Shown here piece by piece: positions 42,263 through 50,709 of a stretch of DNA of 64,000 bases. The first letter of the stretch is position 1, and the number at the start of each line of letters is the position of its first letter. Position numbers and translations under genes: made by a program. Source of the DNA: an uncultured delta proteobacterium (lineage in GTDB: Bacteria > Desulfobacterota > WTBG01 > CAIYCZ01 > CAIRTM01); assembly GCA_963804955.1 (NCBI GenBank), contig CAWDSQ010000030.1, positions 32,001-96,000 on the forward strand, given 5' to 3'. Under the pieces are notes generated by a model. That model saw only the letters and a program-made list of their open reading frames with translations, had not been told where the DNA came from and did not search any database.

Positions 42263-42318
42263 GGCTTTGTCAGAGCATGTAAGAACAATCAACTTAAACA
42301 CTGCGGGTGTTTTTGATT

Positions 42319-42392
42319 TGTCATGCTGAGCGTAGCGAAGATTCCATGCAGTGACAAAAAATTACGAGCCCCTTCACTTCGTTCAGGTCACA
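42319..42392. repeat. TGTCA-family REP-like palindrome (copy 1)
   Basis: TGTCATGCTGAGCGTAGCGAAG...CTTCACTTCGTTCAGGTCACA; related copy at 48735-48808. Confidence 0.7.
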
Positions 42393-42543
42393 ATTTAAAC
42401 TTTCCGTAGAGGCTCTCAGTAAAACATAGGAGAATGATTCTTAGATCGTAGATACTATGAAGGAAAGGATCATTTGACAGGCGTCACGTCTCGGATATGC
42501 TAAAAAAGTCACGTCAATAACTTTCAGCATAAAGGAGACAAAC

Positions 42544-43686
42544 ATGGCGAACAATCAAATGATCCAAACCGAGGCAAAGAATAGCACAGGTAAGCAGGTT
42601 TTGTACATATCCCTTGAACTGTCCAACAAGAAATGGAAACTGACGTTTGGGGACGGGCAACGCAGGAGGGAGCGAACAATAACATCAGCAGATCTTGAAG
42701 AGTTTAAGGAAGAGCTGGTCAAGGCCCGGAAGCATTTTAGACTGGATGAAGATTGCGCCATATACAGCTGTTATGAATCGGGACGAGACGGGTTTTGGAT
42801 ACATCGGTATTTGGAGAGCATAGGGATAAAGAATATCGTGGTGGACTCGGCCAGTATCGAAGTGAACCGGCGGCATCGGCGGGCCAAGACGGACCGGGTA
42901 GATGGGTTAAAGTTGTTAACCATGCTGATACGGCACTTGGGAGGAGAGCAGAAAGTCTGGAGTGTGGTACGGGTTCCGACACAGGAACAGGAAGATGAAC
43001 GGCGACTCAACCGAGAGAGGGATCGGCTGTTAAAGGAACGGGGAGCACATGTAAGCCGGATAAAGTCGCTACTGATATTGTATGGGATACATGCAAAGGT
43101 AGGCAGTAAATTTCTGAAGCTGCTTGAGGAAGTGCGAGCCTGGGATGGCAGCAAACTGCCAGAGTATATCGTGCAGGAGATGAAGCGGGAGTATGAACGG
43201 ATAGGGGTGCTGGACCTGCAGTTGAAGCAGATCAATGAAGAGAAGAAGCGGCAGCTTGCGGCAAGTCCTGAACAAATGCGCAAGGTAAGCAAGCTTGCCC
43301 GGATACGGGCAATTGGGCCGATCAGTTCATGGGATTTGATCTATGAGTTTTTTGGCTGGCGGGAATTCAAGAATGTGAAGCAGGTGGGAGGTGCAGCAGG
43401 TCTTGCGCCAATGCCCTACAGCAGCGGGGATATGCAGATTGAGCAAGGGATAAGCAAAGCGGGCAATCGGCGGATCCGAGCTTTGCTGATAGAGTTAGCC
43501 TGGGGATGGCTGAGATGGCAGCCTGGCAGTAAGCTAAGCACGTGGTTTCATGAGCGCTTTGGAGGGGGCAACAAACGAATGAGGCGAATAGGGATCGTGG
43601 CGCTGGCCAGAAAACTGCTCATAGCGCTGTGGAAGTATGTTGATCACGACATCGTGCCGGAAGGCGCGATACTAAAGATGGCATAA
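42544..43686 (+). CDS. IS110 family transposase/recombinase
   Basis: RuvC-like N-terminus SLELS / CYESG / KTDRVD; C-terminal Tnp domain GLAPMPYSSG, GISKAGN, IVALARKL. Confidence 0.95.
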   Translation: MANNQMIQTEAKNSTGKQVLYISLELSNKKWKLTFGDGQRRRERTITSADLEEFKEELVKARKHFRLDEDCAIYSCYESGRDGFWIHRYLESIGIKNIVVDSASIEVNRRHRRAKTDRVDGLKLLTMLIRHLGGEQKVWSVVRVPTQEQEDERRLNRERDRLLKERGAHVSRIKSLLILYGIHAKVGSKFLKLLEEVRAWDGSKLPEYIVQEMKREYERIGVLDLQLKQINEEKKRQLAASPEQMRKVSKLARIRAIGPISSWDLIYEFFGWREFKNVKQVGGAAGLAPMPYSSGDMQIEQGISKAGNRRIRALLIELAWGWLRWQPGSKLSTWFHERFGGGNKRMRRIGIVALARKLLIALWKYVDHDIVPEGAILKMA

Positions 43687-43720
43687 AGGACATACAACAG
43701 GAGGAAAAGGATTTGATAGG

Positions 43721-43923
43721 CATTCCAGTTGGTGAAGCCCTTCGTACCCGCCCTGGGTCTAAAAGCACCGTCTTTGTAGATTGAAGGCTTCTTAAACTGG
43801 TTGGACTGACGCCAATTGGCGCACGCAGTATGTGGATGCACGGTTATAATACCGGCACGGATAGAAGGTGGTTCCGGGCAAGGTTCCCGGAAAACGACAA
43901 GCCCAACCGGCCAAAACGGAATG
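43721..43923 (+). ncRNA. Bridge RNA (seekRNA) of the IS110 element
   Basis: Closed by CATTCC/GGAATG; target loop with ACCCGCCCT (43746-43754) and GTAG (43776-43779); donor loop with GCAGTATGT (43825-43833) and ATAGAAG (43861-43867); these match the reconstructed target and donor. Confidence 0.85.
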
Positions 43924-43994
43924 AGTATCAAAAGATAAAGAAAGAAAAAAACAAAAAAAATTAACCCGAGGCTTGACAACGGTCCTCATAGAAG

Positions 43995-44012
43995 GGCGGG
44001 TGCCAACCCGCC
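43995..44012 (+). repeat. Hairpin half of the GTAG-REP split by the IS110 insertion
   Basis: GGCGGG-TGCCAA-CCCGCC; joined to the left flank it reads GTAG-GGCGGG-TGCCAA-CCCGCC. Confidence 0.8.
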
Positions 44013-44093
44013 GCAAGATTTTTTAAATTGATTCAACAGGGCATTGATTTTTTCATCGTGATGGTCTCCTGCACACACTGGTTTGGTTATCCT

Positions 44094-44480
44094 TCAGTCA
44101 TACATGACGGTAATCTCGCCTTCGTCAATTTGCTCCGAACGGCATTTAGGACAACGAGGGGGAGCGTCGAGGCAATACCTCCCGCCACACCTGCATGTTC
44201 CAGCAATAAATTCGATTCCTTTGTGATATTCATCTTCGGATATAGGCTCAACTTTTGTAGTCTCTCGTATAGCCTTATCATGTTCCGCACTTGCAACACA
44301 ATACGGTCCCGGCAGTCCTTTTAAGTAGCGCAAATGCAACTCTCCAAGTTCATCAAAACCTATAGACTTCGTCTTTCCACAATTCTCACAGCGAACGAGG
44401 TGAAAGTAAAACCCCCCACCGTGGTCAACAGTGAAAGTGTTACCGCATTTGCGGCATTTGGCTTTAACTTGATGTCCCAT
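44094..44480 (-). CDS. Hypothetical zinc-ribbon protein
   Basis: CRKC, CENC, CRC and CPKC motifs; GGAGGAGG RBS. Confidence 0.8.
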   Translation of the reverse strand: MGHQVKAKCRKCGNTFTVDHGGGFYFHLVRCENCGKTKSIGFDELGELHLRYLKGLPGPYCVASAEHDKAIRETTKVEPISEDEYHKGIEFIAGTCRCGGRYCLDAPPRCPKCRSEQIDEGEITVMYD

Positions 44481-44559
44481 TTTCTGATGCCTCCTCCATT
44501 ATAATCGAACAGATATGCACATACGAGAAAATCAATTTCTCGATGACAGCATCTATAGC

Positions 44560-45117
44560 TTAGTTCTTGGGCTCGATGAGCCACGCCGATAGTCCCTTAA
44601 ACGGTGGGAGCACCGCACCAGAAAATCCTCCGTGGGCAATGATTGCAAATGTGCGGGTTCGTAAGCAGGCAGGCATTGCTTTCGGAACCATTCCATAACG
44701 CATGAAGTAGCCTCCTCGCGAGTGAAATTTACCATTCAGGAAAAACTGGAACTCTTCAAAACCCGATAACGGTCCCCAGCTTATGAACCGAACGAAGTCG
44801 ATGTGTATAGTTTTCTTTAGGAACTTAAAATTGCAGTGAATGTGCCGCGGAGTTGGATTAGGACTCGCCGAGGGATCAGAGCAAGGATAGTTTGCATCGT
44901 CTTCAGCAAGTTCCCAGGTAACATCCAGAGGAATCCTTTGCCAGCTCTCACCGTCGATAGTCATTTTAAACATCTTTTTTGTCTTAGTCTTCTGTAACTG
45001 TTCGAAGGACGGACAATCACCAAACCACGGCGGATAATGCTCATATCGTCTTGAAGGGTCGTAAAAGAAAAGGCCGTTTTTTTCTACTGACAATAAGTTA
45101 TTTAGTGGGCATTTCAT
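44560..45117 (-). CDS. Hypothetical protein directly downstream of the tandem riboswitch leader
   Basis: 185 aa ORF preceded by AAAGGAG; no recognisable motif. Confidence 0.55.
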   Translation of the reverse strand: MKCPLNNLLSVEKNGLFFYDPSRRYEHYPPWFGDCPSFEQLQKTKTKKMFKMTIDGESWQRIPLDVTWELAEDDANYPCSDPSASPNPTPRHIHCNFKFLKKTIHIDFVRFISWGPLSGFEEFQFFLNGKFHSRGGYFMRYGMVPKAMPACLRTRTFAIIAHGGFSGAVLPPFKGLSAWLIEPKN

Positions 45118-45138
45118 GGCAGATTAATCTCCTTTCTC

Positions 45139-45176
45139 AAAACAAAAAACCTCGGGAGCTGGAACAGCCCACGAGG
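45139..45176 (-). terminator. Intrinsic terminator of the proximal aptamer (copy 1)
   Basis: CCTCG-T-GGGCTG-TTC-CAGCTC-C-CGAGG followed by TTTTTTGTTTT. Confidence 0.8.
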
Positions 45177-45182
45177 TTTTTT

Positions 45183-45235
45183 GGCTGTTTAGCACCTTGG
45201 TAAGGCGGTTGCAAGTAACCCTAAATCGGCCCGCC
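45183..45235 (-). ncRNA. SAM-II-like riboswitch aptamer, proximal (copy 1)
   Basis: GGCGG-GCCGAUUUA-GGGUUACUUGCAA-CCGCC-UUACCAAGGU-GCUAAA-CAGCC: P1, GAUUU, CUUGC, GCUAAA, and GGUU/AGCC pseudoknot. Confidence 0.8.
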
Positions 45236-45254
45236 GTAAAACAATTGTATTTTA

Positions 45255-45287
45255 AAATAAAAAAACCCCGTGCTTTGGGGCGCGGGG
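45255..45287 (-). terminator. Intrinsic terminator of the distal aptamer (copy 1)
   Basis: CCCCGCGC-CCCAAA-GCACGGGG followed by TTTTTTTATTTT. Confidence 0.8.
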
Positions 45288-45305
45288 TTAAATACACTTT
45301 TAACC

Positions 45306-45357
45306 GGCCTTTAGCACATTTATATAGCGGAGCAAGTAACCAAACTAAATCACCGCT
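45306..45357 (-). ncRNA. SAM-II-like riboswitch aptamer, distal (copy 1)
   Basis: AGCGG-UGAUUUAGUUU-GGUUACUUGCU-CCGCU-AUAUAAAUGU-GCUAAA-GGCC. Confidence 0.8.
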
Positions 45358-45364
45358 TTGTAAT

Positions 45365-45392
45365 AACATAGTCATTCTTTCAAACAAGTCAA
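45365..45392 (-). promoter_or_regulatory. Probable sigma70 promoter of leader copy 1
   Basis: TTGACT-16 bp-TATGTT; the same boxes and spacing occur in copy 2 although the spacer differs. Confidence 0.65.
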
Positions 45393-45446
45393 TAGCCGCT
45401 GCCCGGCCAAGGCCATTTTTCCCAAATACCAATAGAAATCTGTCCG

Positions 45447-46163
45447 TTACAACAACTTCCCAAAATCCTGCCAACTGGTATGCAGCGAGTCTTTATTTAG
45501 TGTTTCCGCTAATATTTTTAGATACTTCTTTCGTGGTATCGACTTTCCTCCGAGACTCAACATATGGTCAGTTACGGCCTGGCAATCGATAAAATCAAAC
45601 TCAAGCTGCAGCAGTACACGGCACAGGGCAAAAAACGCGAGCTTTGAAGCATTCGGCCGCTGGTGAAACATGGATTCACCGAAAAAAGCTCTTCCAAATG
45701 TGAGCCCGTAGAGGCCACCGCAAAGCTCGTCTCCATCGTAAACCTCAACGCTGTGCGCTATGTGCAGATGGTGCAGTTTGGTATAGACAGCCGGCATATC
45801 GCCATTTATCCAGGGGGCAGTCTGAAACGTCCTTTCCACCCGAGCGCATTGTTCCATAACCCTGGTAAAATTTCTATCAAAGCTGACTGTCAGGCTGGTA
45901 TTCCGGATAAAACTGCGCAGGCTCCGGGAGAGATGCAACTCGGATGGATACAAAACCAGGCGTGGATTCGGAGAATACCAGGGAATAGGATCCAGTCCGG
46001 ACCAGGGGAATATCCCCCTTGTGTAAGCTTCAACTACGGTGTTAACAGTTATTTTGCCGCCCAGGAAAACCAAACCATCCTTCCGCGGCTGTAATTTTTC
46101 CGGAAACTGTGCTGGGATTTCTCCACGGCGGATATCTTCGAGAATTGTCTTATAGTATTCCAT
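45447..46163 (-). CDS. aat: Leucyl/phenylalanyl-tRNA--protein transferase
   Basis: AYTRGIFPW, WYSPNPR, AHSVEV, GGLYG...FFGESMF, NASK, IDCQ...H. Confidence 0.95.
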   Translation of the reverse strand: MEYYKTILEDIRRGEIPAQFPEKLQPRKDGLVFLGGKITVNTVVEAYTRGIFPWSGLDPIPWYSPNPRLVLYPSELHLSRSLRSFIRNTSLTVSFDRNFTRVMEQCARVERTFQTAPWINGDMPAVYTKLHHLHIAHSVEVYDGDELCGGLYGLTFGRAFFGESMFHQRPNASKLAFFALCRVLLQLEFDFIDCQAVTDHMLSLGGKSIPRKKYLKILAETLNKDSLHTSWQDFGKLL

Positions 46164-46230
46164 TTATACGTTTGAGAGAAAAATTAATAAAGGAACCCGT
46201 TGATTATTGTCGGTAAAACATAGACTCATC

Positions 46231-46867
46231 TTACAAATCGCCTTCCTGTAATACCCGACCAAGACCATTTTTCTCCAGATACCAATAGGTAAAGTGTTTA
46301 GACAGCCAGCTTGCAGCTTTTTCTTCAGCCAGTGGCCGATAACGAGACGTGTAAATAACCGGTATGCAAAAGCGTGCTTCCAAAGCATCAAGTGTTCCCG
46401 AAACAGCATTGGGGTGTGCCTCTGTGCATTCATCATCATATGGCGACTTTATATCTTCATAGCTCGCCTCTACCAGTAAAGCACGCCACCGGTACTGAGC
46501 CAATTTTTCGCACATTTTGAAAAAGCGTGACCGCTGCTGTATCAAGGTTGTTATGAGGTCGGAAAGTGTTTTGCGCTCAATTACGAGCAAGTCTTCCATG
46601 CCTTCTATGCTGTAATCACCAACGTCAAGCTTCTGCCTTCTTTCGCCGGCAATCCAGTTGGGAAACCTGCTGAAATCAAGAGGGAGTTTTTCACGGGTAT
46701 CGACCAAAACAACAGGCTTGGGAATTTGCCGTGTAATGCTGTGACCGCCACGCTTCACAATTAATCGGCCCGATGGCGGTGCTACAGGATTTTGGTGTTG
46801 TATCGGTTCATCAAGTTCATCCTGATCGGATTCTTCGACATCTTGAGGAGATCTGATCTTTTGGCAT
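46231..46867 (-). CDS. ERCC4/XPF-like nuclease domain protein (probable start MPKDQI, frameshift shortly after)
   Basis: VDTRE, GDYS and IERKTLSDL ERCC4 motifs; AAAGGAG RBS before ATG 46867. Confidence 0.85.
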
Positions 46868-46894
46868 ATACACTCCTTTATATCGTTATAGTGG

Positions 46895-46972
46895 TTATAG
46901 AAACAGAAGAACCCCCAGTGCGGCAAGAGCAATACCGAAACCTGCAAGACCAATCAATATATCTTCTTTCAT
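46895..46972 (-). CDS. 25-aa single-TM small protein
   Basis: MKEDILIGLAGFGIALAALGVLLFL*; AGAAGGGGGG RBS; fills the gap between ARH and ERCC4 genes. Confidence 0.6.
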   Translation of the reverse strand: MKEDILIGLAGFGIALAALGVLLFL

Positions 46973-47029
46973 GTAGCCCCCCTTCTATCCAATTATAAGC
47001 CTTTAATGGCAGTATACTGGTTTAGCCGG

Positions 47030-47807
47030 TCATTTGTTCTTACAATATTTTTCCGTGAATGCCTTCGTGATATCTCCAAGCCGGGCGTCCAGTACTTCGT
47101 AGACTTTTTCCTGAATTAAGGCCGGAACGCCTTTGTAGAAAGCCTGCGCTATGCCGCCAGTAATACAGGTGAGCGTATCGGTGTCTCCACCCAGCGATAC
47201 TGCCGTTCTTATGGCATCTTCAAAATCGCTGGAATCAATGAATGCCCGTATTGCCTGCGGAACAGTGCCCTGGGACGAAACATCGAAACTGTATGTCGGC
47301 CGGATCTCGTCCACGTGTTTGCTCAGATCATAGCCGAACCATGCTTCAATCGTGTTTTTGATCTCAGCCTTTGACTTCCCTGTCCGGGCAAGGAATATCG
47401 CAGACAGCGGTTGCTTGCCCTCCCTTGATTCCTTCAGGATGATTATGGGTAATCTCGGTATACTCCTTTGCCTTTTGCAGTACCGTGTCCAGATCATCAA
47501 AAGCATACCCCACAGGGCTGATGCGCATGGCAGCGCCATTGCCCCAGCTGTTGTAGGGTTCTGATGACGTGCTTTGCGCCCATTCATCAAAGTTGCCGCC
47601 ATACCCTCTGTGCGGATACCAGCAGTAGAATTTCTTGAGATTGTCGATATATGGCGTTCCGGTCAAAATAGTATCGGCCAGTGCGATTGTCAGAACCGAG
47701 TCGTCTGTGAAATGACATTTTTTAGAGAACAACTCAAACTGTTTGGTCTTGATGTTGTCCCACTCGTACACCGAACCGATGATGTCACCTGCTATTGCAC
47801 CTATCAT
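47030..47807 (-). CDS. ADP-ribosylglycohydrolase family protein (frameshift near 47405)
   Basis: GAIAGDIIGS, FTDDS, SWGNGAAMR, THNH, then AVSLGGDTDT in the next frame. Confidence 0.92.
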
Positions 47808-47920
47808 TTATTCACTCCGTCCTAAACTAAAAATTTATTATGTTGCTCATTGCATCATCAAAAGGCGCAATCAGCATATCTGCAAACATCTGACTGGTAA
47901 GCATGCTCATCTCAATACCG

Positions 47921-48579
47921 TCAGTGAAGCTTGTGATCTTTCCTGTCATTGAGATCAAAATCCATCTTCTTTTTTTTGTTACTTCGATAATCAGTGGTGT
48001 TGCACGAGAGGACTAGCAAAAGCATCTCGTGTACCTTTAGCGTCCTTGACATATGCAAGGTTTGCCTGCTTGTCTATGCCGTATGACTCTGCGTCCCGAA
48101 TCGCATCTAAATCAGAGCTGAGAAAAACAAACTGCCAGTCGTTCTTTTTTGTTTTTTCGTCTATCATTTTCACGATCTGAGCTCTGTTGAACTCGCGGCT
48201 GGCGTTCTCCTGCCCGTCAGTGACGATGGCCAGCACGACTTTTGAAGGCTGTGATTTTTCATCAATGCTTGCCAAGAGAGGCTTCCAGGTCGTTTATGCC
48301 TCTTCCGATCGCGTCCAGCAGCGGCGTGGAGGCCCGCGGGACATATACATTTCGGTCCAGTTTAGGGACTTCAGCAACAGGGGCAAAGCGGCAAATAACC
48401 TCATAGGGGTCCTGGGAGTCAAACTGAACGAGTGTCATTGTGGCCTTCCCGGGCAACTTTTGCTGCTCATCCAAAAATGCGTTGAAGCCGCCGATAATGT
48501 CATCGCGTATGCTTTCCATGGAACCGGTCCTGTCAAGGATAACGGTTATGTGCGTGTAATCGTTTTTTTCATTTTTCAT
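47921..48579 (-). CDS. VWA domain protein (frameshifts near 48270 and 48010)
   Basis: MIDAS-like ILDRTGSM, TPLLDAIG, VTDGQENAS, WQFVFL; AAAGGAG RBS. Confidence 0.88.
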
Positions 48580-48649
48580 GGCATTCTCCTTTGTAAAACG
48601 TGGTTTATTGTCTCTTGTCTTTCCCTGTGATTTTCTATGTTCTGAATAA

Positions 48650-48688
48650 AGTATAGCGGTTGGTTTTGTCATATAAGGACAAAACCAA
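48650..48688 (-). promoter_or_regulatory. Palindromic operator next to a TATACT -10 box upstream of the VWA gene
   Basis: TTGGTTTTGTC-N7-GACAAAACCAA perfect 11-bp inverted repeat (48660-48688); TATACT at 48655-48650. Confidence 0.6.
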
Positions 48689-48734
48689 ATTTTTTATCTT
48701 AGAGTCTGTACGAAAAGCCAAAGCACCTTCGTTT

Positions 48735-48808
48735 TGTCATTCTGAGCGCAGCGAAGAATCTCGTCGTTTTAATGAATTCAGAGATCCTTCACTTCGTTCA
48801 GGATGACA
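48735..48808. repeat. TGTCA-family REP-like palindrome (copy 2)
   Basis: TGTCATTCTGAGCGCAGCGAAGAATCTC...GAGATCCTTCACTTCGTTCAGGATGACA. Confidence 0.75.
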
Positions 48809-48911
48809 TTAAATGACTTTTCATACCCGTTCGTGCTTAAACTCAACATACGGTGACCCGGATAACAATATTGAGATCAAGATATTTTGTTTTTTTTGCC
48901 TCCTTTTTTAC

Positions 48912-48947
48912 AACAAAAAACCCCGAGAGCTGGAACAGCCCACGAGG
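48912..48947 (-). terminator. Intrinsic terminator of the proximal aptamer (copy 2)
   Basis: CCTCG-T-GGGCTG-TTC-CAGCTC-T-CGGGG followed by TTTTTTGTT. Confidence 0.75.
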
Positions 48948-48953
48948 TTTCCT

Positions 48954-49006
48954 GGCTGTTTAGCACTTTGGTAAGGCGGCTGCAAGTTGCCGTAAATCGA
49001 CCCGCC
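48954..49006 (-). ncRNA. SAM-II-like riboswitch aptamer, proximal (copy 2)
   Basis: GGCGG-GUCGAUUUA-CGGCAACUUGCAG-CCGCC-UUACCAAAGU-GCUAAA-CAGCC. Confidence 0.78.
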
Positions 49007-49025
49007 GTAAAACAATTGTATTCTA

Positions 49026-49056
49026 AAACAAAAAAACCCGTGCTTTAGGGCACGGG
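49026..49056 (-). terminator. Intrinsic terminator of the distal aptamer (copy 2)
   Basis: CCCGTGC-CCTAAA-GCACGGG followed by TTTTTTTGTTTT. Confidence 0.8.
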
Positions 49057-49074
49057 CTAACTACGCTTTTAACC

Positions 49075-49125
49075 GGCCTTTAGCACATTTATAAAGCGGA
49101 GCAAGTAACCTTTTAACTCACCGCT
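49075..49125 (-). ncRNA. SAM-II-like riboswitch aptamer, distal (copy 2; GAUUU changed to GAGUU)
   Basis: AGCGG-UGAGUUAAAA-GGUUACUUGCU-CCGCU-UUAUAAAUGU-GCUAAA-GGCC. Confidence 0.7.
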
Positions 49126-49135
49126 ATTTAATTAT

Positions 49136-49163
49136 AGTATAGGTATGGTTTTTATAAAGTCAA
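49136..49163 (-). promoter_or_regulatory. Probable sigma70 promoter of leader copy 2
   Basis: TTGACT-16 bp-TATACT. Confidence 0.7.
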
Positions 49164-49207
49164 GGGAGCTTTGGCAAAAATCACTCCCTTAAACTACAGC
49201 AGCTTGC

Positions 49208-49255
49208 TCACAGATCGCCTTCCTGTAATACACGGTCAAAACCACTTTTTTCCAG
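49208..49255 (-). pseudogene. 3' remnant of a second ERCC4-domain gene
   Basis: Translates LEKSGFDRVLQEGDL*, versus LEKNGLGRVLQEGDL* at the end of the gene finishing at 46231. Confidence 0.85.
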
Positions 49256-49258
49256 CTT

Positions 49259-49308
49259 GTAGGGCGTGCTATGCCCACCGATTAAAATGGTGGGCGCCAC
49301 ACCCCATG
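49259..49308. repeat. Degenerate GTAG-family REP pair
   Basis: GTAGGGCGTGCTATGCCCACC...GGTGGGCGCCACACCCCAT. Confidence 0.55.
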
Positions 49309-49361
49309 GACTGAAAGATATGGTGCTTCAGGCAGAAACAGCATAAGCGGTATGCAGGTGT

Positions 49362-49405
49362 AAAAACAAACAAACGCCTGCCATATAATAATGGCAGGCG
49401 TTTGT
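49362..49405 (-). terminator. Strong intrinsic terminator
   Basis: Perfect 15-bp stem ACAAACGCCTGCCAT/ATGGCAGGCGTTTGT; T-rich tail on the minus strand. Confidence 0.8.
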
Positions 49406-49410
49406 CGAAA

Positions 49411-49762
49411 GTCTGATGGTGCCGGTGCGTTATTTGGCAAAAAACCCGTTACTCATAGTAGCCCGAAAGCTTCACCCTATAAAGGTCATCATGACCAAAG
49501 GGTATTTGTATTAACAAAGGATTTTGCGCATGTTAACGCTTATCGAACACCTCAGACAGAGAGCCGTCTTTTTTAAAAGAAGGAAGGAGGAGGGGTGTAA
49601 GTCCGTATGGTTTGTTAGACTTAAAACACTCACTTCTCGTTAAGGTTAACTATCGATTACGTTTTACCTCTAGTTGGTGGGTCTGTCGCAGCAACTGCGA
49701 CTGAACATCGTTGCTGTTGATTGCTCAAGTTTGCTGAGCTTAACCCACCTCCTTCCCTCTAT
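49411..49762 (-). ncRNA. Candidate large structured non-coding RNA of unknown family
   Basis: No credible ORF; many nested helices with G-U pairs favouring the minus strand; candidate promoter upstream and terminator downstream. Confidence 0.55.
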
Positions 49763-49860
49763 CTTCTATATAACTCATAAATAGAGATTTACAACAGGGC
49801 CGAGAATATTTTTTAAGTTCAGCCGGTGGCGCATATGCATACATTATGCCACTGGGTATC

Positions 49861-50709
49861 TTATGCGTTCTTTGCTTCCGCGGTTTCGGGAAGGGAGCCA
49901 GCAGCTTTTTGCCCCCTGGCCATGATGATTTCAAAAGTGGCAGGAACGCCCTCCGGGGCGCCGAATTCCTGCTCGTAGAGCTCTATCATGCGGCGCCACA
50001 CCCTGCGCACGCCGGTGCTGCGGTTGCGGTGGGTTGACGCATTGCGCGCGCCCATTCCCTTGATGGCCCGCACAAGCTCGTTGACCGATGCATAGACTGC
50101 CGTAACGCTATAGGTTATGCCCGAGACATGTGTAAAGCCGGCATCTGCCATGTCGCAGCGCATGCGCTTTTCAGTGATGGGAAGGGCAAGAGCCTCTCCC
50201 AGTCCGTAGCCTGTTTCCCGGCTTGCCCGGGTGAATGCCTGCCGCAGTTCGCAAAAGGTATTGGTGCCGAAAGCCGAAAAGATAAAAAGCCCCCCCGGCC
50301 GCAGCACGCGCATGACCTCATCCAGCGCATCGCGCCACTGCTCAAACCACTGATAGGCAAAATTGGAAGCCACAAGATCAAATACCGAATTTGCATAGGG
50401 CAGCTGTTCGGCATCGGCAACAGGAAAGAGCAGGGGCGCCTGCGAAAGCTTGCCCCTGGCATGGGCTATCATATTGAAGGCGATATCGCAGCCGTGAACC
50501 TGTGCCGACGGGTATGCCGCCATGAGCTGTGCCGTCAGGTTGCCGGTGCCCATGCCTATATCGAGCATGCGCGCAGCTGTCTCAGCCGGCAGATCGGCAA
50601 GCTCCAGCAGCCGCGCTCCCATGGACTCCTGCAGGCCTGCATAGTGGTCATAGGTGCAGGCGCTTGCATTGAATGATTTTTTTACAAAGGGCTTGTCAAT
50701 GATCGTCAT
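49861..50709 (-). CDS. bioC: Malonyl-ACP O-methyltransferase
   Basis: IDKPFVKKSFN...YD..A.LQ, LDIGMGTG, IKGMGA; in bioF-bioH-bioC order. Confidence 0.9.
   Translation of the reverse strand: MTIIDKPFVKKSFNASACTYDHYAGLQESMGARLLELADLPAETAARMLDIGMGTGNLTAQLMAAYPSAQVHGCDIAFNMIAHARGKLSQAPLLFPVADAEQLPYANSVFDLVASNFAYQWFEQWRDALDEVMRVLRPGGLFIFSAFGTNTFCELRQAFTRASRETGYGLGEALALPITEKRMRCDMADAGFTHVSGITYSVTAVYASVNELVRAIKGMGARNASTHRNRSTGVRRVWRRMIELYEQEFGAPEGVPATFEIIMARGQKAAGSLPETAEAKNA

Follow-up and report, generated by a model that had tools for sequence, protein, structure and literature searches.

The minus strand of the 64,000-nucleotide stretch of DNA analysed here (the window) carries a real tandem of two structured non-coding RNAs, an undescribed RNA (domain 1) and a 6S-like RNA downstream of it (domain 2), and contigs from RNA libraries indicate that the tandem is expressed. 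It is likely that a single promoter gives rise to a dicistronic non-coding transcript, in which the undescribed 5′ RNA (49760-49577) precedes the 6S-type RNA of the lineage (49557-49411). A sigma-70-type promoter would drive this transcript and an intrinsic terminator would end it; cleavage at an A/U-rich linker would then separate the two RNAs, in the way that RNases E and G act on the 6S precursors of E. coli, and domain 2, by analogy with 6S RNA, would imitate an open promoter and so be bound by the housekeeping RNA polymerase holoenzyme. An earlier, sequence-only reading of this DNA had described the locus as one large orphan RNA, possibly of a new class. As a single RNA this description does not hold, domain 2 being a member of a 6S-like family, and the orphan status is kept by domain 1 alone.

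Folded as a whole, the 399-nt RNA reaches a minimum free energy of -139.6 kcal/mol, compared with a mean of -98.0 kcal/mol (sd 5.45) for shuffled sequences (z = -7.63), and none of 100 shuffles folds as well. The minimum free energy structure includes the closing helix of domain 1, the GGUGGGU/ACCCACC helix, the GCUCAG, GUCGCAG and UAAGUCU hairpins, and the entire rod of domain 2. All helices listed in the sequence-only reading are present in the sequence; the alternative pairing proposed there, CAGCAAC/GUUGCUG, is found in this genome only and is absent from the other three species compared. By BLAST, the 433-nt unit is present in a single copy in the genome and recurs in three of the four further species of the genus, with identities of 89, 81 and 79%. 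Conservation of the full 433 nt is confined to the genus, and in a four-sequence genus alignment the RNA body is much more conserved than its flanks. A mobile origin of the unit was considered and rejected, since neither plasmids, phages nor E. coli genomes contain a match and the genome has only the one copy.

Inside the RNA locus no open reading frame (ORF) of at least 40 aa has a Pfam match. Small ORFs preceded by ribosome-binding-site-like sequences were also sought as candidates and none was found, and the insertions and deletions between species are not multiples of three. The earlier view of a structured, non-coding minus-strand RNA with its own promoter and terminator and no credible ORF is borne out. 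ARAGORN detects no tRNA or tmRNA gene in 48500-50000, again as the sequence-only reading had it. Searches of the whole window against Rfam 15, the 6S model included, return no family at gathering score, and at E <= 10 the surrounding 1.6 kb (48500-50100) gives chance-level matches only, to IMES-5, microRNAs and pieces of the GlmZ terminator.

The promoter proposed earlier, TTGTAA-16-TATATA, is indeed present when the minus strand of 49362-49794 is read directly, and its -35 and -10 blocks are kept across the four genus sequences, among which the spacer between them is variable. It agrees with the consensus at 8 of 12 positions and fails the rules of a consensus scan, by which neither strand of 49250-49900 has a promoter-like site; the promoter call therefore rests on conservation. 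Stronger promoters (TTGACA or TTGAAA, 17 bases, TATATT) are encountered in other genera at an equal distance upstream of domain 1, and equivalent promoters, again at equal distance, precede copies of domain 1 that stand alone. The terminator named in the sequence-only reading is recovered by the consensus scan, and a U-A pair of its stem is replaced by C-G in three other species of the genus (alignment columns 452/469), a change that reads as compensatory in the aligned sequences. The features of the locus and related positions are collected in Table 1.

Table 1. Features of the tandem RNA locus, RNA-library contigs and related copies; positions are those of the window unless a genome and contig are named.
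Feature	Position	Strand	Basis or remark
-35-like hexamer TTGTAA	49789..49794	-	Sequence; TTGTAA/TTGCAA in 4/4 genus sequences; absent from consensus-scan calls
-10-like hexamer TATATA	49767..49772	-	16 bases past -35; TATATAG block unchanged in 4/4 genus sequences
Predicted transcription start	near 49760	-	Prediction
Domain 1, separate RNA, ~185-190 nt	49577..49760	-	R3 166.9 bits; P1-P3; without Rfam match
P1	49760-49750 with 49588-49578	-	98% paired, 17 sequences
P2	49749-49742 with 49683-49676	-	92.9% paired, 12 long-type members
P3, invariant hairpin	49739-49723	-	GCUCA-loop-UGAGC
A/U-rich linker between domains	49558..49576	-	No promoter-like or terminator-like site (consensus scan); bridged by RNA contig 49397-49597
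Domain 2, 6S-like RNA, 147 nt	49411..49557	-	R1 178.5 bits, R2 143.4 bits; covariation; R2 matches to 6S loci
Intrinsic terminator	49362..49406	-	16-pair stem (49406-49369), 6-nt loop, T-rich tail; consensus scan
RNA contigs, domain 1 only	49566-49749, 49566-49751, 49595-49750		
RNA contig, 6S-like part only	49403-49564		
RNA contig bridging junction	49397-49597		
R2-type copies in f4	G030:C2:2442-2585, G030:C12:81873-82019, G030:C2:62168-62313		Beside canonical 6S
R2-type copies in f4	G036:C10:31758-31901, G034:C78:2258-2405		Beside canonical 6S

The closing stem of domain 2 is made up of three segments. Above it the central bubble has a 16-nt single-stranded 5′ strand and a 3′ strand that carries a small hairpin, and the rod ends in an apical stem-loop. 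A weak BLAST match in another genus (G005) is a small RNA of ~200 nt that has a strong promoter and a terminator of its own, and it can be aligned to domain 2 alone. Two covariance models of domain 2 were used, R1 built from 5 sequences and R2 from 19. R1 matches 15 of 17 family genomes, which represent all nine genera, with one or two matches per genome, the second and weaker match occurring in four family genomes. A second, more divergent full-length 6S-like copy lies on another contig in G012 (L036, C13), G008 (L037, C35) and G013 (L038, C210), and the second match in G007 is weaker and extends over 92 nt only (L039). Across the 19 domain-2 sequences base pairs are formed in 93.7% of cells, and of the 44 pairs 28 are changed on both sides; this level of pairing and covariation is reached by none of 500 shuffles, and slid controls show 33-48% pairing. 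Covariation among homologues, a check proposed in the sequence-only reading, is found for domain 2.

The relationship to 6S RNA was assessed with R2, run with filters off over a 29-kb test set comprising the E. coli K-12 ssrS locus, eight RF00013-positive loci of the sister family f4, and L018, where the RF00013 match is only very weak. At ssrS and the eight RF00013-positive loci (9/9) the best R2 match corresponds to the annotated 6S gene from end to end, with scores of 17.6-32 bits and E-values of 5e-6 to 0.015, and the best score outside 6S loci in the test set is 9.2 bits. At ssrS the match spans 1485-1667 against the annotated 1484-1666 (22.9 bits, E 7.6e-4), an E-value that becomes only ~0.1 when scaled to the whole genome; with default filters ssrS is missed by R2 on the whole E. 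coli chromosome. In the opposite direction, RF00013 (gathering score 46.4 bits) does not match domain 2 at gathering score or at E <= 10, and it has no match in the whole source genome and none on 15 related loci.

The phylogenetic distribution of the two models differs. RF00013 identifies 6S RNA in none of 16 genomes of f1, the family to which this DNA belongs, in none of 4 f2 genomes and 8 of 10 f4 genomes, and 11 of the 16 f1 genomes without such a match are at least 90% complete and at most 5% contaminated. R2 at E <= 0.001 has matches in 14 of 16 f1, 2 of 4 f2, 1 of 8 f3 and 6 of 11 f4 genomes, and under strict filters the R2 type was not detected in 146 other genomes of the phylum. In f4 the R2-type RNA is present in one to three copies beside the canonical, RF00013-positive 6S; in G030 a second, weak RF00013 match (24.8 bits, E 0.007) is located at an R2-type locus. 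This suggests that two 6S-type RNAs coexist in f4 genomes and, since the R2 type is found there beside the canonical one, it is to be viewed as a paralogous type that could differ in function. On comparative sequence evidence the R2 type is a distinct 6S-like subfamily that is restricted to the taxonomic class and lies outside the reach of RF00013. Because it is the only 6S-like RNA detected in f1 and f2, we infer that it is the functional 6S RNA of these two families.

6S RNA imitates an open promoter and thereby regulates RNA polymerase. As described in PMC10578484, it folds into a rod in which a central bubble lies between two irregular stems. Domain 2 shares with 6S (SsrS; RF00013) the rod, the closing stem, a central bubble that is mostly single-stranded, and the apical stem, and with E. 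coli ssrS also blocks of closing-stem sequence that are common to both in an alignment. It further resembles 6S in its housekeeping-type distribution, with one or two copies of the type per family genome where no RF00013 6S is present, and in its appearance in metatranscriptome assemblies. Domain 2 differs from 6S in its length (147 nt as against ~185-200 nt), its shorter apical arm, its position below every RF00013 threshold and its coexistence with canonical 6S in the sister family, and unlike E. coli 6S it is not located beside a gene for 5-formyltetrahydrofolate cyclo-ligase. Domain 2 might instead be a rod-shaped small RNA that is 6S-like in shape only and has another partner or function, for which the Ms1 RNA of actinobacteria, which binds the polymerase core and not the holoenzyme, may be compared. 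This reading, which would account for the failure of RF00013 on domain 2, the presence of canonical 6S in f4 and the short apical arm, is considered unlikely, as it is opposed by the end-to-end matches of R2 at all nine true 6S loci and by the lack of any other 6S candidate in the 16 f1 genomes, most of them of the high completeness given above. It is also opposed by truncated 6S-1 RNAs, which according to PMC8876501 go through the whole 6S cycle in vitro although only the bubble and a short arm on each side are left.

Domain 2 as the 6S-type RNA of the lineage leaves the nature of domain 1 to be considered, and here the arrangement of the two RNAs in related genomes is informative. The 260 nt upstream of each 6S-like gene of the family were read, and two arrangements emerged. 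In g3, g8 and g9 a 5′ GGAAGGAGGUGG, a GCUCA...UGAGC hairpin and a 3′ CCNCCUCCUUCC are placed between the promoter and the 6S-like gene, and in g2, g4, g5, g6 and g7 the promoter stands directly before the 6S-like gene, with no domain 1 between them. R3, a covariance model of domain 1 built from 14 sequences, has a match 7-18 nt upstream of the R2 match in seven genomes from four genera. In several genera the domain-1 RNA has come to lie behind the promoter of the 6S-like RNA and ahead of its gene, an order from which both would be co-transcribed. The R3 and R2 matches are on different contigs in G010, G009 and G007, and G014 has an R3 match without an R2 match; in G010 and G007 domain 1 has its own promoter and is directly followed by its own terminator.

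The motif pattern of domain 1 was also scanned against a species genome collection and a metagenome collection. The former contains five motif loci, four of which have a 6S-like gene downstream, all in the family; the fifth, on a Peribacteraceae contig, is confirmed by neither R2 nor R3 and was set aside as a chance match. The latter contains nine, six with a 6S-like gene downstream (three of them identical) and three that are standalone, domain 1 there being followed at once by its own terminator and by no 6S-like gene. Since each part occurs alone with its own signals, the locus contains two RNAs and not one orphan RNA, and domain 1 is, by this comparison, a separate RNA gene and family and the only orphan class at the locus.

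These arrangements also bear on whether the locus might nevertheless yield a single RNA of ~400 nt with two domains that work as one molecule, its 5′ domain being a module of the 6S-like RNA such as a sensor or a second binding platform. The close spacing of the parts (7-18 nt) in seven genomes and four genera, the absence of a promoter-like or terminator-like site between domains 1 and 2 in the consensus scan, and an RNA-library contig that bridges the junction are what one would expect of such a molecule. It is judged rather improbable in view of the adjacent promoter that the 6S-like RNA possesses in g2, g4, g5, g6 and g7, the terminator that domain 1 possesses at the three metagenome loci and in G010 and G007, and the separate contigs on which the two reside in G010, G009 and G007; moreover, four of the five RNA contigs cover one part only, though their breaks may be assembly artefacts.

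With regard to these contigs, part of the stretch is contained in 18 RNA-labelled runs, the matching runs numbering 20 in all, from 14 studies (assembled contigs). In four RNA runs from four studies the five contigs all lie within 49397-49751, and they give neither strand, ends nor level. They cover both RNAs and no flank, which agrees with the transcription presumed in the sequence-only reading; the bioC-like gene and the downstream flank have no coverage, the uncovered part not being evidence in itself. A processing site was considered as the cause of the contig ends at 49564 and 49566 and was discarded, because a polymorphic site at 49565 lies between these ends, which are probably assembly breaks. 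Near this point a hairpin, AGACGG...CUGUCU (49570-49552, minus strand), extends into the start of the 6S-like RNA, whose closing stem it would compete with. The hairpin covaries in the genus alignment: its variable pair is G-U, A-U or G-C in three of the four genus sequences, the stem being one pair shorter in the fourth, and the hairpin (AGACNG...CNGUCU) is absent from two related metagenome sequences.

Domain 1 is recognized by a near-invariant closing helix (GGAAGGAGGUGG/CCNCCUCCUUCC; P1), an invariant GCUCA-loop-UGAGC hairpin (P3) and a variable, multi-branched interior, in RNAs that range from ~150 to 220 nt in length across the family. Of the 42 genomes of the class, 11 have a match to R3, and every one of these belongs to family f1; at the locus it prefers the minus strand strongly (166.9 bits as against 29.5 bits on the opposite strand). 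Against Rfam 15 the best overlap is IMES-5, with 19.2 bits as against a gathering score of 96.1 (E 0.75). In P1, which is 11-14 bp long and always followed by a U-rich tract, 5 of 13 pairs are changed on both sides. One or two sequences account for most of these changes, chiefly G012, where both strands change together; covariation in P1 and P3 is thin because both helices are almost invariant in sequence. P2 takes the form of GGUGGRY paired with RYCCACC, and 3 of its 7 pairs are changed on both sides among the 12 long-type members. The interior varies by subtype, and its helices have no support across genera. In the standalone members L062, L050 and L053 an ACUCACC inside P2 could pair with a GGUGAGU outside P2, a possible pseudoknot, and the equivalent in G009 is UCUCACC with GGUGAGA, a compensatory change.

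Two candidate identities for domain 1 were set aside. A tRNA-like cloverleaf, formed by P2 and three hairpins, has loops that lack a conserved tRNA signature, the interior of standalone members differs from it, and ARAGORN reports nothing; a CsrA sponge is not indicated by GGA motifs that are few, mostly base-paired and unconserved in the P3 loop. In the literature, judged from titles and abstracts, no published description of either RNA was found.

The position of domain 1 invites comparison with the long 6S precursors of E. coli, whose distal promoter lies ~220 nt upstream. As set out in PMC10578484, E. coli 6S is made as precursors from two promoters and matured by RNases E and G; here, likewise, the 6S-type RNA begins ~200 nt past the promoter and would need 5′ maturation, but the upstream 190 nt are a conserved structured RNA that elsewhere has its own gene. 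Tandem 6S genes are described for the Bacillus cereus group in PMC7726162, and these resemble the present locus in having two non-coding RNA genes in tandem at a 6S locus; both genes there are 6S paralogues, whereas the upstream RNA here is multi-branched and not a rod, as are domain-1 folds in general, and is matched by neither R2 nor RF00013.

The E. coli precedent of precursors from two promoters (PMC10578484) would also accommodate a domain 1 without a function of its own, as a 5′ leader or as a cassette for processing the 6S precursor, in which P1 serves as a double-strand nuclease site or as a partial terminator that sets the level of the 6S-like RNA. The 11-14 bp of P1, the U-rich tract after it and the A/U-rich linker would suit such a role. 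Standalone copies with their own promoter and terminator, far from 6S-like genes, nonetheless keep P1 and P3 invariant, and both strands of P1 are conserved in sequence beyond what pairing demands, which would not be expected of a mere cleavage helix; a leader role is accordingly held to be quite improbable.

A domain 1 with its own function finds a possible clue in P1. The 3′ end of the 16S rRNA of the source genome is GGAUCACCUCCUUUCU, and the 5′ strand of P1 includes AAGGAGGUG, which over 9 nt is perfectly complementary to CACCUCCUU in this 16S 3′ tail; the standalone members have a second such sequence inside the RNA. P1 thus resembles a Shine-Dalgarno:anti-Shine-Dalgarno duplex, its 3′ strand being similar to the 16S tail, and differs from one in that the duplex is intramolecular and no ORF follows. 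The observation is post hoc; it motivates a reading and proves nothing. Our preferred guess is that domain 1 is a trans-acting RNA whose helix or strands may act on the translation-initiation apparatus. The more specific proposal of a new class of riboregulator, an intramolecular Shine-Dalgarno:anti-Shine-Dalgarno mimic that would titrate 30S subunits or ribosome-binding sites when the helix opens or by way of a helix-recognising protein, and whose repeated fusion to the 6S-like gene would let one transcript damp both transcription and translation, is speculative and has a low probability.

Upstream of the RNA, the same strand carries candidate genes of biotin synthesis: their Pfam matches, to a class I/II aminotransferase, an alpha/beta hydrolase and a methyltransferase, agree with bioF, bioH and bioC. 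On the other side, by blastn, 42265-49310 is a 7-kb insertion relative to the sister species G003, flanked by a convergent FtsJ/TlyA-like methyltransferase gene and by the terminator of the RNA. Its cargo includes an IS110-family transposase (42544-43686), an ERCC4 nuclease, a Leu/Phe-tRNA protein transferase homologue and a frameshifted ADP-ribosylglycohydrolase in two frames (47030-47807), and its G+C content is lower. Because G003 lacks this segment, and because the insertion ends by the terminator, the RNA is situated at the island edge, as was proposed from the sequence, and outside the island. Within the island, 48729-48951 (plus strand) has a weak match to Aggregatibacter sRNA 41 (32.1 bits as against a gathering score of 97, E 3.7e-5) and consists of a long hairpin followed by a terminator-like hairpin. 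G003 in turn has extra DNA that is not in the window (L003 130-1436), which encodes an integrase-core (rve) transposase and sits past the 3′ end of the bioC-like gene and ahead of the RNA promoter, leaving promoter and RNA intact. No protein gene was found as a conserved neighbour of the domain-1 or 6S-like loci; in G008 a tRNA and a small SRP RNA (L028 2808-3031) are located ~1.1 kb downstream of the 6S-like gene.

For this uncultured family of Thermodesulfobacteriota, domain 2 provides a candidate for the missing 6S-type RNA, beyond the reach of the Rfam 6S model, and its sister family is seen to carry the same 6S-like type beside a canonical 6S. Domain 1 represents a new structured RNA family in which a near-invariant sequence, with the appearance of a super-strong ribosome-binding site, is locked in a helix and accompanied by an invariant hairpin. 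If the repeated coupling of domain 1 to the 6S-like RNA is functional, it would link global control of transcription to another process, possibly the initiation of translation.
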